Source: a virus. Taken from it: a DNA stretch of 64,000 nucleotides. Under the pieces are notes generated by a model. The model saw only the letters and a program-made list of their open reading frames with translations, did no database searches and was not told the DNA's origin. Positions 5,557 through 62,178 of this stretch are shown one piece after another (within the stretch, counting starts at the first letter, position 1; each line of letters begins with the position of its first letter). Location of the stretch: IMG/VR virus record IMGVR_UViG_3300031669_005140; one strand, written 5' to 3'. Position numbers and translations under genes: made by a program.

Positions 5557-5603
5557 TAGTATTGTGTAGTTCAATTTGGTGAACTGTATTTATAAACTAG
5601 TTA
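5557..5603 (-). repeat. attI-like terminal site, copy 1 (near-identical to 8155-8200)
   Basis: Plus strand TAGTATTGTGTAGTTC...GTGAACTGT...TATAAACTAG|TTA. Confidence 0.75.
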
Positions 5604-6053
5604 GCTGCAAGCACTAATTATGTGCTTCGATTAAACTTTCTCCTTCATCATCACCATAAAAAAATTCGCAGAAAGAAAGTGAATTACTACCGTCATCATA
5701 AGCCTGTTCATTTATCCAGTCTTTAAATGTTTTTCTTTGCACGTCTCCTATATCACTTTCTCCCCACCCCTCTTTACTTCCATCGGGAGCTATAAAAAAG
5801 GATTGGTAACTATTCACATCACTTTCAATTATAGTTGAAGTTCTGCTTTTAAATATTTGAGTTGCTTTTTCGTGAGCCTTTTTTATTAACTCATCATTCC
5901 AGCTTGTTACAGCTATTGCGTGGTGTCTTATATATCCCATTTTTTTATTATTTAAGTGTTTCAAATTAAGTTACTGCTAAATTTACCGTGCCAGCAGCTA
6001 ACACGTTGTATAATTCATTGCGAAAAGCAACGAAATCATACAACCATTCGTTA
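5600..6053 (-). mobile_element. gene cassette A with upstream attC-like hairpin
   Basis: Ends GTTAGCTGCAAGCAC (5600) and GTGCCAGCAGCTAAC (to 6002) are 13/15 complementary; hairpin at 5999-6053. Confidence 0.75.
5614..5964 (-). CDS. hypothetical cassette-borne protein
   Basis: 116-aa ORF (probable start MGYIRHHAI) with APDGSKEGW motif. Confidence 0.7.
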   Translation of the reverse strand: MKHLNNKKMGYIRHHAIAVTSWNDELIKKAHEKATQIFKSRTSTIIESDVNSYQSFFIAPDGSKEGWGESDIGDVQRKTFKDWINEQAYDDGSNSLSFCEFFYGDDEGESLIEAHN

Positions 6054-6060
6054 ACGACAA

Positions 6061-6294
6061 TTAAAGAGAATGCTCCTTGCGATATTGTTTCAACCTTCCG
6101 ATAGTCAAGTTTTGTTGTATTATCGTTTGACTTAATTTTTGTGCTTGCCTAATTTGGTTAGGTTCTCCTGCAAATAATGATGCTTGCATATTTTCATTAG
6201 AAAATACCATTTTTTCAAGGCTTTGTAATCCTTTATCCCAACCAACCTTATTACACATATCTATTAACATTTTAAATGATGCGTCTTTTGCCAT
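6061..6294 (-). CDS. hypothetical cassette-borne protein (cassette B)
   Basis: 77-aa ORF between GTTA/TAAC cores at 6050 and 6316. Confidence 0.65.
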   Translation of the reverse strand: MAKDASFKMLIDMCNKVGWDKGLQSLEKMVFSNENMQASLFAGEPNQIRQAQKLSQTIIQQNLTIGRLKQYRKEHSL

Positions 6295-6345
6295 TTGATT
6301 AAAAACGTTTTATAACACGGTATGTAAGCCATCCCTTGTCAAGGT

Positions 6346-6735
6346 TTATTCTTTTCTGTTTGCTATGGCCGCCTGTTCCTGATAGATGCTAGACTTAGGA
6401 TAAAGACCGATTGCAGTAGGTTCCAACGGCAGTTCGTCGGGAAACTCATACTGCGAGGAGATGTCTACGATGCTTGCAGCGATCTCACAGGCATCCCTAC
6501 TTAACCTCCAGCCCCTATCCGTTACCATCCGATACTTTTTCCTTTTAGTATCGTGATGCGTTTTGAACGTGGTTGGAATATAAACTATTCCCTCTGGCTT
6601 CCTTATTGTAATGTAATCACCTTTCTTGCTTTCCTCAAAGTCCGTATCTCTTAGCTCTGGCTCGTGCCCATTAACAATGAGTGCTGCCGCTATGGACGAG
6701 CTGGCCTGAATAAAGTAATCCCTTAGTTGCCCCAT
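6346..6735 (-). CDS. hypothetical phage protein
   Basis: 129-aa ORF overlapping the end of the HNH gene. Confidence 0.55.
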   Translation of the reverse strand: MGQLRDYFIQASSSIAAALIVNGHEPELRDTDFEESKKGDYITIRKPEGIVYIPTTFKTHHDTKRKKYRMVTDRGWRLSRDACEIAASIVDISSQYEFPDELPLEPTAIGLYPKSSIYQEQAAIANRKE

Positions 6736-7178
6736 GAAAGATTATGATTAGAAATGAACCTATTGTAGTAATGCTCGTCTAGTGCCTTCATCCTGGATAG
6801 CACGGCTCCGAACGTCCTTGGAAACAGCTTTAGCAGGAAATTTACTGGCACAACGGTAAAGTTCTGGTCGAATACATCGTGATGCTCTCTACATGCCAAT
6901 ATTCCATTCCGTATGTCACCCCGTAGCAGCAAGGAATGGCTTTTAGGGATGATATGTGCCCAGTCTACCGGAAGATACCGCCCACATATTTCACAGCGAC
7001 TCCCAATACGCTGTACCATGGCTGCCTTGTTTGCACTGATACGGTTATCGGAGGCTCTTGTCTTCGTAGTTTTCTGCTTAATCTTTGGTAGGCTTCCTCT
7101 AAGATACTGGTGCTTTCTGCAATACCCGTGTGAGAAAACAGGGTATTTGCATCCTCCTGAGTTGCACTCTTTTGGCAT
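6723..7178 (-). CDS. HNH endonuclease-like protein (NinG-like)
   Basis: CEICG...AHII...N.ILACREHH zinc/HNH pattern; N-terminal C-C-C-H cluster. Confidence 0.75.
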   Translation of the reverse strand: MPKECNSGGCKYPVFSHGYCRKHQYLRGSLPKIKQKTTKTRASDNRISANKAAMVQRIGSRCEICGRYLPVDWAHIIPKSHSLLLRGDIRNGILACREHHDVFDQNFTVVPVNFLLKLFPRTFGAVLSRMKALDEHYYNRFISNHNLSWGN

Positions 7179-7525
7179 ACTTGTATACTTTTAGTGATGT
7201 TCAACTTATCGCAAGCGTAATCGATAATAGGGGTAATAAGAATATCGCTTCCCCGTTCTAGCCATCCGTCTACAATTGTTACAGATCGTAGCATGTTTGA
7301 GTGAGAAAACTTGGATAGCAACTTAACATCATCGTAGGCATTAGCCTTCATTCCATAGTATCGCATAAGAATAAACCGAGCAGCGTGACGACCGTAGCTA
7401 TGGCCCCTATCTCTGCAATCGCTATACATTAACTCTCCGATGTCGATGCCTTGGTATTCTGCAATCGGCCTACATACCCGCTCCAGCAACTCTTTATCAT
7501 ATTCTCTCATATACCTATTCCTCAT
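6965..7525 (-). CDS. DnaA C-terminal-like helix-turn-helix protein
   Basis: RDRGHSYGRHAARFILMRYYG...HSNMLRSV resembles DnaA_C-type phage HTH proteins. Confidence 0.4.
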   Translation of the reverse strand: MRNRYMREYDKELLERVCRPIAEYQGIDIGELMYSDCRDRGHSYGRHAARFILMRYYGMKANAYDDVKLLSKFSHSNMLRSVTIVDGWLERGSDILITPIIDYACDKLNITKSIQVCQKSATQEDANTLFSHTGIAESTSILEEAYQRLSRKLRRQEPPITVSVQTRQPWYSVLGVAVKYVGGIFR

Positions 7526-60483: not shown

Positions 60484-60744
60484 TGACAGTTGGGTATATA
60501 CGAAGTACCCTAACTACAAACTTAAAAATTAGTACAAACCTTAATAGGGTATTTCGTATATACCTTGTTAGCAAATCGTAAAAATTATGCCAAGAGAACC
60601 ATTACCGTTAAAAAGAGAACATAAAGGCGATGTAACTATTAATATTGCTGATATATTCAGAAACGAAGAAATGCAAAAAGAAGCAATAAAAGGATGTAAG
60701 AAACTTAAACCACGTAAACGTAAATAATTTTTATGTTTGCTAAC
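60484..60744 (+). mobile_element. gene cassette K with attC-like hairpin at 60484-60570
   Basis: Arms GGTATATACGAAGTACCCTA/TAGGGTATTTCGTATATACC; ends GTTAGCAAA/TTTGCTAAC (9/9). Confidence 0.75.
60587..60727 (+). CDS. 46-aa cassette-borne peptide (absent from the ORF track)
   Basis: MPREPLPLKREHKGDVTINIADIFRNEEMQKEAIKGCKKLKPRKRK* fills the cassette. Confidence 0.6.
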   Translation: MPREPLPLKREHKGDVTINIADIFRNEEMQKEAIKGCKKLKPRKRK

Positions 60745-60778
60745 TCATTGATAAGTGCAGTTCAATTATTTAACTGTT

Positions 60779-60823
60779 TTTTGACGAACGATTTGCACAA
60801 GTCAAAAATAAGCATTAACATTG
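60779..60823 (+). promoter_or_regulatory. TTTTGACGAACG-type promoter
   Basis: 12-mer, TTTG, then TAACATTG 25 nt downstream of the motif. Confidence 0.65.
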
Positions 60824-60828
60824 CATCT

Positions 60829-61233
60829 ATGGAAAACAACGACATTAAGAATAGGGCTATCATGCATGGGCTTGGCCTAATAGTCAAGGAGCATGATCCA
60901 GACATAGATGACGGCGTATGGACACCGAGCTATAGCTTCTTCGACACCTACACCAATAAGGCTGTATCACTTCACCCTTTCTATGCCCATAAGCTGGTGT
61001 TGCTAGACTTCTCTAAGTATGCCATGATACAGTGGTGGGCACTAGATCGGCTAGAGGAGTTCGGAGGCGGCTACTTTATCTCCAACCATCGATGTGTAGT
61101 TCGGGCGAAAACTTCCGAGGGCTTTATGGTGGAGCATACGGCGGAGGCAGATACGACCGTAAAGGCCATTTTCGAGGCGTTGGCTGCACTATTTATGGCA
61201 GGGCATACGTTTGTGTTCAAGGGTAATAAATAA
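60829..61233 (+). CDS. hypothetical phage protein
   Basis: Likely start MENNDIK, after the promoter. Confidence 0.55.
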   Translation: MENNDIKNRAIMHGLGLIVKEHDPDIDDGVWTPSYSFFDTYTNKAVSLHPFYAHKLVLLDFSKYAMIQWWALDRLEEFGGGYFISNHRCVVRAKTSEGFMVEHTAEADTTVKAIFEALAALFMAGHTFVFKGNK

Positions 61234-61506
61234 CGCTTAATAATGTTGATATGGAAGACAACACGGAGACTGTAACGATCACAAAAATAGCCAACGGCTA
61301 CCAATTAACAGTAATTCACGACCAAACTGGTAGTGTCAATGGATGCGTATTATCAGAAGCAGCATACGAGCTATTACGGTTGCACTTTGTTAGCGATAGT
61401 TTTTCTGCTGACAAGCTGAAAGAGGCATACACTGATGGGTATTTTAGCGATAGTTGGTATGATTTTGATGCTGAGAATTACCGATAAATATTAATTAGGA
61501 GAAATA

Positions 61507-61919
61507 TAACGGTAAGTGTAGCATATCGTTGCGGATTTTGAAACACTTACCTGTCAATTTACACGAAATGAAAATAGTAGCACAAATATTCAATAACCTG
61601 CTAACCCGCAATGGATGCTACACATTGTTATGGGCTGGCGTTTAATACTTTATAAAAATGTACGAAAAATCAAATTCAGAACCAATGCCACAAAAAAGAA
61701 GTGAGCATGAATCAATTGCTAATGACATGGGAAACCATATTTGCAACTTTAGCCCAGAACAACAAAACGAAATGTTAAGAACTATTCGACAAATTGTTGC
61801 AGAGCGTAGGCAAATGAACATTGAAGAAACTGAAAAGCAACTTGCTTATTTAAAAGAAACTTTTCAGAATTTGTAGGTTATTCGGGTGAGCGTGGGAATG
61901 TCTTACGCTTGCCCATAAC
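61507..61919 (+). mobile_element. gene cassette J with attC-like hairpin at 61507-61630
   Basis: Arms GTGTAGCATATCGTTGCGG/CCGCAATGGATGCTACAC; ends GTTATGGGCTGGCGT/ACGCTTGCCCATAAC (13/15). Confidence 0.8.
61658..61876 (+). CDS. hypothetical cassette protein J
   Basis: 72-aa helical ORF within the cassette. Confidence 0.65.
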   Translation: MYEKSNSEPMPQKRSEHESIANDMGNHICNFSPEQQNEMLRTIRQIVAERRQMNIEETEKQLAYLKETFQNL

Positions 61920-62178
61920 TAACTAATAAAGCATATACTATGAAGACGATTTATGAGCACGAAACCAATTTTAAACAATTTTACAGCTCTATGCTTAAGA
62001 TTGGGGAGATGATGCAGGTTGATGATACTGACGAAGACTATGGGGGGCATGTTTTGCTTATGACATTCAGGGGGATTATCTCGTTAACTTATCCCGATTA
62101 CACATGGGCATGTGGGACAGAACTACCTGGTCGTAAACTAGGAAAAGACGAAGTAGTTATCTTAATTCAGGAATAGCC

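Follow-up and report, generated by a model that had tools for sequence, protein, structure and literature searches.

Genome context and cassette arrays

In this study, we analysed a stretch of 64,000 nt (hereafter the window) from the IMG/VR virus record IMGVR_UViG_3300031669_005140, in which small accessory genes stand in short rows, or arrays, and a number of them are preceded by an imperfect hairpin and enclosed by a complementary pair of GTTA and TAAC ends. We establish here the architecture of these integron-like units, the covariation of their ends across unrelated sequences and the occurrence of natural junctions between genomes at their cores.

The window derives from a tailed phage of Bacteroidota type. 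Its genes from position 1 to ~23,400 lie on the minus strand and comprise replication and accessory genes, and those from ~23,500 to 64,000 lie on the plus strand, where the terminase, structural proteins and giant proteins are followed by further accessory genes. The large terminase is ~25% identical to its counterparts in Cellulophaga and Flavobacterium podophages. The entire window is contained in the ENA contig k141_3271129 (80,070 bp), which has a 141-nt self-overlap and closes to a 79,929-bp circle; the protein index gives a contig of 152,794 bp instead, and the assemblies disagree in this respect. Searches for close relatives by protein in IMG/VR and INPHARED, together with JGI metagenomes, returned almost none. 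The genomes compared below include L003, a distant relative whose core proteins are ~42% identical, and G001 (also L010), a complete 61.5-kb IMG/VR phage.

Complementary ends of single-gene units

It had been predicted from the letters of the window that complementary ends of the form GTTA/TAAC bound the accessory genes. We scored GTTA-N11...N11-TAAC anchors over 15 positions with a threshold of at least 13/15. Five pairs in the window reached this threshold, far above the 0.27 ± 0.5 expected from 100 Markov shuffles, in agreement with the prediction; the shuffled controls, which had been set as a test beforehand, gave ~20-fold fewer complementary ends. All five pairs are in cis, with one small gene inside each. 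Among the 1,976 combinations of 38 GTTA and 52 TAAC sites in the arrays, the top five are all cis pairs with the GTTA upstream and 237-622 nt between the ends, and no trans pair within the arrays reaches 13/15. GTTA/TAAC ranks first among all 256 tetramer anchors, and an anchor-free test, in which the 5' region of each gene was compared with its own 3' region, gave an excess over the 3' regions of other genes. The units found in the window are as follows (position 11 is counted along the 15-position arm).

5600-6002, minus strand: cassette unit with a 108-aa gene (5614-5940); 13/15, G.T at position 11; duplex of -23.5 kcal/mol, p=0 against trans pairs; arms GTTAGCTGCTGGCAC (6002-5988) and GTGCTTGCAGCTAAC (5614-5600) on the minus strand
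8197-8459, minus strand: cassette unit with gene 8210-8518; 13/15, G.T at position 11; 5' arm within the annotated open reading frame (ORF)
8577-8814, minus strand: cassette unit with gene 8578-8862; 13/15; stop codon TAA inside the TAAC
13777-13957, minus strand: weaker, bulged unit with gene 13778-13993; -15.1 kcal/mol, p ~0.002 against trans pairs
19670-20292, minus strand: cassette unit with a 193-aa S-adenosylmethionine (SAM)-methyltransferase-like gene (19683-20264); 14/15, G.T at position 11
60567-60744, plus strand: cassette unit with a 46-aa gene (60587-60727); 9/9 contiguous, 11/15 overall
61627-61919, plus strand: cassette unit with gene 61658-61876; 13/15, G.T at position 11; alternative local 5' arm at 61877-61893

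Four of the pairs originally proposed (A 13/15, H 14/15, J 13/15 and K 9/9) were reproduced. Two others, C (10/10) and D (13/14), match by assignment pairs that score 13/15 here and whose 5' arms lie 48-59 nt after the ATG, inside the ORF. Of the pairs E (10/12) and F (11/14), one corresponds by assignment to the weak bulged pair 13957/13777 and the other was not located. Several units have their 5' arm 48-141 nt into the annotated ORF, because the gene begins in the loop of the upstream hairpin, and a stop codon is present in or beside TAAC in most units. In the unit 8577-8814, position 11 lacks the G.T on both strands and reads A.T on the plus strand. The arms of the unit 60567-60744 (GTTAGCAAAC... 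and ...GTTTGCTAAC) recur in near-identical form around an unrelated gene in L037.

A 146-nt sequence at 60347-60492, consisting of the 3' end of gene 60189-60479 and 13 nt past its stop codon, has a 94% identical copy at 5329-5474. This copy is antisense to the local genes and adjoins a terminator-like hairpin, and it looks like the relic of a cassette inserted in the opposite orientation.

Hairpin linkers

The proposed TAAC-hairpin-GTTA linkers are real, and three of them are canonical elements of 124-125 nt; the remaining linkers in the window are shorter or degenerate. The elements are listed below.

8456-8580, minus strand: canonical 125-nt TAAC...GTTA hairpin; closed fold of -26.6 and arm duplex of -27.3 kcal/mol; ATG at 8518 in the loop
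20289-20412, minus strand: canonical 124-nt TAAC...GTTA hairpin leading the methyltransferase cassette; sense strand -39.8 against antisense -30.6 kcal/mol; arm duplex -33.5
61507-61630, plus strand: canonical 124-nt TAAC...GTTA hairpin; -32.1 kcal/mol; arm duplex -31.7
59380-59494, plus strand: TAAC...GTTA element of 115 nt ahead of gene 59419-59634, with a closed fold and an arm duplex of -19.5
5941-6060, minus strand: linker that contains two hairpins, a short TAAC...GTTA one and a further local one; fold of -29.4 kcal/mol

The 5' arm at 59491 pairs with the 3' arm ending at 59649 at 11/15 positions. In the window, L003, L037 and G001, the TAAC...GTTA hairpins that stand before a 5' arm are 124-126 nt long and unrelated in sequence; the chromosomal integron repeats of Vibrio cholerae are ~123-126 bp. 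At the base of the hairpin, 4-5 bases after TAAC and 1-2 bases before GTTA are unpaired. The attC sites of integrons are imperfect palindromes of 57-141 nt that vary in sequence and keep their fold. The linker cores match AAC/GTT, but not the full RYYYAAC/GTTRRRY of attC, and they enclose closed folds of variable sequence. A loose scan for TAAC...GTTA hairpins did not rise above shuffles (15 observed against 7-23), and only the strong elements of 124-126 nt stand out. In most linkers no clear case of a host-type promoter (-33 TTTG, -7 TAnnTTTG) was seen by eye.

The fixed end site

Using a position weight matrix (PWM), we found six strong copies of a fixed end motif, TAACT(N2)TT(N)AT(A/T)A(A/G)(C/T)(A/G)C, each reading in the direction of the genes and closing a run of small ORFs on its 3' side.

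5586-5603, minus strand: end motif of array 1; PWM score 23.8; opens with the TAAC that ends the 3' arm of the last cassette
8183-8200, minus strand: end motif of array 2; PWM score 22.5; 45 nt before the core gene 7774-8139
13763-13780, minus strand: end motif of array 3; PWM score 26.5; followed by a host-type promoter (repeat D2)
19656-19673, minus strand: end motif of array 4; PWM score 26.5
59646-59663, plus strand: end motif of array 5; PWM score 26.5
60741-60758, plus strand: end motif of array 6; PWM score 19.1; followed by promoter TTTTTGACGAACGATTTGCAC, a motif common to L003

The stretches 13651-13788 and 19544-19681 are repeats of one another (91% identical); the 12 nt upstream of them share few bases, and by eye the similarity begins at about the TAAC. 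Array 2 with its end motif is an insertion relative to L003, whose flanking core genes overlap at this place; the fixed site is not a resident empty site in L003, since array and fixed site together are extra relative to it. The fixed site is at the 3' end in every array, unlike the attI site of integrons, which stands with the Pc promoter at the 5' end. A scan of IMG/VR for the fixed motif looked chance-like at first, and re-analysis led to L010/G001, L014 and L016 as true members; G001 carries the same end motif as the window. A BLAST search of the phage collection with the end module gave chance matches only. The conserved promoter TTTTGACGAACGATTTGCAC is present only after some arrays. The fixed site may also resemble the TnpB right end (TAGTTCAC) and dif/Xer or CTnDOT target motifs.

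Junctions between related genomes

Three independent divergences between related genomes fall at the TAAC core, within TAAC and one or two further shared bases. L003 lacks homologues of the array genes, and the core genes flanking them are syntenic. A common 119-nt block in L003 (10278-10396), L034 (9548-9666) and L037 (6220-6338) is 99-100% identical, with flanking genes that are only 84-92% identical; it ends ...TTTATAAC G(G) and is followed by three different hairpin-plus-gene units, and those of L034 and L037 end in matching arms. An indel of 1.3 kb between L003 and L034 starts immediately after GGTATTAAC.

The 193-aa methyltransferase-like gene has 1,157 homologues with up to 91% identity and is far closer to its homologues than any core gene is to its nearest relative. 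L046 carries the methyltransferase cassette with 89% DNA identity and an identical 3' arm; by eye, the similarity ends at the TAAC and a different hairpin lies beyond. Only the methyltransferase ORF is similar in L054, where it is enclosed by unrelated arms (14/15, G.T at position 11) with a GTTG/CAAC core, and in 20 other genomic contexts the gene occurs without arms.

The hairpin differs wherever the upstream part is shared, and hence it belongs to the downstream gene. This places the junction at the 5' TAAC and makes the unit a hairpin followed by its gene, the mirror image of an integron cassette. This agrees with the inverted polarity that the original prediction had suggested, namely a hairpin upstream of the gene and a fixed site downstream of the array. 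The breakpoint had been expected at G|TTA; it is found instead on the side of the 5' TAAC, at TAA|C or TAAC|, and not at G|TTA of the sense strand. The gain, loss and replacement of genes at the cores in related genomes, the second test set beforehand, was found at the junctions described above, with the exception of one replacement whose junctions are off-core; neither test refuted the idea.

With respect to the 119-nt block itself, it contains a long closing stem (GTTGGAGTG...CACTCCAAC) just before the cassette junction and probably represents either a structured RNA or a portion of a platform site.

The same design in other phages

Pairs reaching at least 13/15 are also present in L003 (four, against 0.155 expected) and G001 (seven, against 0.06 expected), and further ones were found in Polaribacter phage P12002L, L016, L037, L054 and Cellulophaga phage phi18:3; L034 has a shorter pair of 10/10. 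A G.T at position 11 is seen in 29 of 37 pairs at or above the threshold, and these 29 units from eight sources (the window and seven other phage sources) were pooled. In the pooled arms, positions 1-3 do not vary and position 4 is either A-T or G-C. Three or all four pair types occur at positions 5-9 and 12-15, where 93-100% of the pairs are Watson-Crick. Position 11 is G.T in all 29 units, on the gene-sense strand wherever the gene strand was checked, and positions 16-17 are mostly unpaired.

In P12002L, four units with G.T at position 11 have GTTG/CAAC cores and one GTTA/TAAC pair is without G.T. The phage phi18:3 (L097) has two units with G.T at position 11 at 14842-16349, one of which carries a DNA methyltransferase. 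These units lie a few hundred bases upstream of the 428-aa tyrosine recombinase gp037, which looks like a lysogeny integrase because a repressor gene is nearby. P12002L and phi18:3 are cultured systems, and the cassette idea can be tested in them. When the hairpin motif TAACGGACGAGTRTAT was searched for in 401 Flavobacteriaceae genomes, the numbers of matches were like those of a reversed-pattern control, and several of the inspected loci were ferredoxin-type coding sequence.

Relation to known systems

It has been reported that virulent phages, Polaribacter phage P12002L included, carry clusters of attC sites lacking integron-integrases (CALINs) (PMC9892861, Front Microbiol 2023). Two attC sites in 'divergent directions' were predicted in P12002L, both by HattCI and only attC2 with support from Infernal; IntI1 recombined P12002L_attC2 at G|TTAGGC, and no top-strand recombinants were obtained (PMC9892861). 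On the gene-sense strand this crossover reads TAA|C. Within the element family of the window, P12002L_attC1 (TAACGG...TGTTAGGC) corresponds to a typical internal linker and attC2 to the repeated terminal site. The IntI1 result supports the idea that such sites can act as DNA recombination sites, without thereby identifying the natural enzyme. The CALIN of P12002L belongs to the same element family as the window and, like it, combines methyltransferase cassettes with the lack of an integrase; the published account does not cover how the units are built, how their arms covary, that their polarity is mirrored, that there is an end site as such or that the arrays are multiple (PMC9892861). A CALIN is defined by at least two nearby attC sites and no integrase, and the arrays of the window, judged by structure, would fit this, with multiple hairpin sites in each array and no integrase found.

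The likeness to integrons extends to several features. In both cases promoter-poor single-gene cassettes stand in same-strand rows, and their sites appear as imperfect palindromes of variable sequence and kept shape, with AAC/GTT cores where the fold closes. A cassette begins with bases that are complementary to those of its own far end, as they would pair in an excised circle, a stop codon lies in the core, the element is ~125 nt long and a fixed partner site stands at one end of the row. However, there are also clear differences. No IntI gene was found in the phage. The folded site of the phage precedes the gene, whereas an integron cassette consists of an ORF and then attC, with the crossover at G|TT of the 3' core. 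As the phage junction is at the sense-strand 5' TAAC, the sense strand plays the role of the attC bottom strand. The fixed site of the phage is 3' and has no adjacent integrase or Pc promoter. In place of a 7-bp R box, the folded site has an outer arm of 15 bp whose position 11 is G.T. In addition, at least seven short arrays are dispersed over one virus genome, and it is common for an ORF to begin within the hairpin.

Among phages, the nearest parallel for shuffling at stem-loops between genes is offered by the promoter/stem-loop (PeSL) cassettes of T4-type phages, which are sequence-conserved sigma70 promoters recombined by homology (PMC2839356, PMC4122927). Both share hyperplastic ORFan regions between core blocks, intergenic stem-loops, indels between close relatives at these places and proposed mini-circles. 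In contrast to PeSLs, the hairpins of the window are cassette-specific, share only a core of 4-6 nt and have ends that pair across the gene, and most linkers are without a clear host promoter. IS200/IS605 elements likewise have single-strand hairpins, a short fixed target or cleavage motif and no target duplication; their end hairpins, however, are sequence-conserved within a family and not complementary across the element, whereas those of the window differ between units. Moreover, no TnpA was found in the window, and its TnpB element is a separate insertion. Taken together, the system is best explained as a variant of the integron/CALIN kind that has been published only in fragments.

Proposed mechanism

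We consider it probable that the small accessory genes are mobile integron-like cassettes of mirrored polarity. Whether the system goes beyond this and constitutes an integrase-less, mirror-polarity counterpart of integrons in Bacteroidota phages, in which a host-encoded or co-resident Xer-like recombinase inserts and excises single genes at many docking sites of a virulent phage genome, is in our view an evenly balanced question. What we infer in this scheme is site-specific recombination, the excised circles and the enzyme.

A unit read on the sense strand begins with an imperfect hairpin of ~124-126 nt right after TAAC, whose loop holds an AT-rich, promoter-like stretch and frequently the ATG, and continues with GTTA and 11 cassette-specific bases, the rest of the gene, and 11 complementary bases followed by TAAC, usually with the stop codon. 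Head-to-tail joints between units lie at TAA|C or TAAC|, and a fixed site of 18-25 nt closes each row. If a unit were circularised, both ends would complete one long folded site, composed of an outer arm (15 bp, G.T at position 11), an inner arm and a small asymmetric internal loop. A structure-reading tyrosine recombinase would act on the folded sense strand, as IntI does on the attC bottom strand, and the G.T at position 11 may mark the strand. Given that the phage itself yielded no recombinase gene, the enzyme would be supplied by the host or by a co-infecting element.

Integrons are known as gene-capture platforms of bacteria, and the turnover of small phage accessory genes such as anti-defence genes, DNA-modification genes and ORFans has mostly been ascribed to illegitimate or homologous recombination. 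If the model is true, it would provide a defined mechanism for this turnover and mean that viruses have site-specific gene swapping of their own; it would also give precise rules to delimit phage accessory modules in metagenomes and a route of gene flow between phage and host. The 15-bp arm with its fixed G.T and the ~125-nt hairpin are directly testable features.

Points against the model and alternative explanations

Several observations weigh against the mobile-cassette model. When bulges are allowed, a significant arm pair is found in ~9-10 of roughly 17-20 small array genes, only about half, so that the original claim of paired ends around every accessory gene stands for these and not for all. 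One cassette replacement, L003 5488-5842 versus L037 1522-1811, has off-core junctions, from which it follows that ordinary recombination acts too. Further assemblies of the phage (L002, L006-L008, L039-L045) are 100% identical and yield no population variants. No verified IntI1 recombinants were obtained with P12002L_attC1 (PMC9892861). A TTATAAA box lies inside the fixed site and is strongly enriched upstream of many ATGs, those of structural genes included, so that the fixed site may be, or overlap, a promoter. The sense strand is the more stable one in 10 of 15 hairpins, which fits RNA structure equally, and the G.T bias at position 11 is likewise equally compatible with RNA structure.

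The search for an enzyme also counts on this side. Pfam scans, which covered the array genes and nearly all window ORFs of at least 150 aa lacking a PHROG assignment or a precomputed Pfam entry, revealed no tyrosine or serine recombinase, PF00589 included, in agreement with the original remark that none is visible in the window. There was none among the main unassigned ORFs in the other 15.9 kb of the 79,929-bp circle (Pfam) and none was found in the complete phage G001. No recombinase is annotated in P12002L. Only an HNH protein and TnpB turned up in the search of window and circle, and no TnpA was found.

The alternative that fares best, which we nevertheless hold to be unlikely, is that the stems are mRNA structures, with a closing helix between 5' and 3' ends and a 5' hairpin for each ORF serving processing, stability or translation control, and that swaps occur by homologous or microhomology recombination at the few conserved bases while selection keeps the modules intact. 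This would be consistent with the G.U-compatible G.T at position 11 in all 29 selected units (gene-sense where checked), with the 15 G.T against 2 A.C mismatches in 16 curated stems, with the ATG and AT-rich leaders in the hairpin loops and with the stop codon covered by the 3' arm. It also fits three complete or near-complete phages with no recombinase gene found, as well as the one off-core junction, and PeSLs are a precedent for regulatory stem-loops that mediate cassette shuffling and mini-circles (PMC2839356). However, three independent junctions fall at the same nucleotide step with only 4-6 shared bases, and the elements occur in accessory arrays only, with none between the core genes that belong to the same operons. 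The arm length and the mismatch position are fixed, as expected for a site read by a protein, a member site has been used strand-specifically by an integron integrase, and the linkers show no clear host promoter (-33 TTTG, -7 TAnnTTTG; by eye).

A second alternative, improbable to a greater degree, is that the arrays are stranded CALIN-like copies, which were built on a host chromosome platform with a recombinase, captured as blocks and are now inert. That no recombinase was found in the phage, that whole arrays with their end motif act as single indels relative to L003, that several units are degenerate and that the 146-nt cassette fragment at 5329-5474 is wrongly oriented would all fit this case, and CALINs are widespread, with examples in phages as well (PMC9892861). 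Yet bulk capture would hardly give the seven or more separate arrays that one 80-kb genome carries at different positions of its backbone, and the close relatives L003, L034 and L037 differ at the level of single cassettes. The near-perfect arm pairing argues for continued selection, and in the 401 Flavobacteriaceae genomes the one hairpin motif gave only chance matches in ferredoxin genes.

Finally, a repeated regulatory motif (promoter or terminator) combined with chance and no cassette logic is very improbable: the TTATAAA box and TTG-N3-5-TAAC do recur upstream of genes, structural ones too, and the loose hairpin scan stays within the shuffle range (15 against 7-23), but the arms are cassette-specific with no trans pair attaining cis scores, there is covariation across 29 units, the element length is conserved and the junctions are at the core, so that the cis/trans, L003, G001 and pooled-unit results already contradict it. 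The related idea that fixed motif and hairpins are mere promoters or terminators of the PeSL kind had been dropped after the cis/trans test and the comparison with relatives.

Other features of the window

Two kinds of promoter-like elements were noted. The palindromic box TTTATAAA/TTATAAA has 16 of its 20 occurrences in the intergenic 6.6% of the window, mostly 0-35 nt before an ATG (for example at 24259, 30935, 33633, 61650, 6309 and 14319), and may be a phage-specific promoter element. The motif TTTTGACGAACGATTTGCAC, with TAnnTTTG ~20 nt further on, is found at 58840, 60778-60799, 19554-19575 (minus strand) and ~13680 (minus strand) of the window and in L003 at 5856, 13276 and 18910, where it is identical though the proteins are only ~43% identical. 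The arrangement is that of a Bacteroidota-type promoter whose upstream element is conserved.

The TnpB gene (IS605 OrfB/Cas12f-like, phrog_506; 10984-12159, minus strand) has no transposase gene nearby and a structured upstream region at 12160-12292. A 56-nt direct repeat (95% identical; 12277-12332 and 12510-12565) flanks a 73-aa gene (12293-12514) beside it. The TnpB of L003 is 49% identical and lies at a different position.

A stretch of 635 nt without ORFs (1727-2361, minus strand) has a strong predicted fold (-139 kcal/mol) and a tRNA-like T-arm sequence, and a copy of the promoter motif TTTTGACGAACGATTT lies upstream of it at 2392-2408 (minus strand). The sole Rfam match in the window is a 118-nt tRNA at 916-1033 (minus strand), which was missed by ARAGORN. 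Lastly, the HNH endonuclease ORF (151 aa; 6723-7178, minus strand) overlaps a 186-aa ORF (6965-7525, minus strand) by ~210 nt in a different frame, and both ORFs have homologues in L003.

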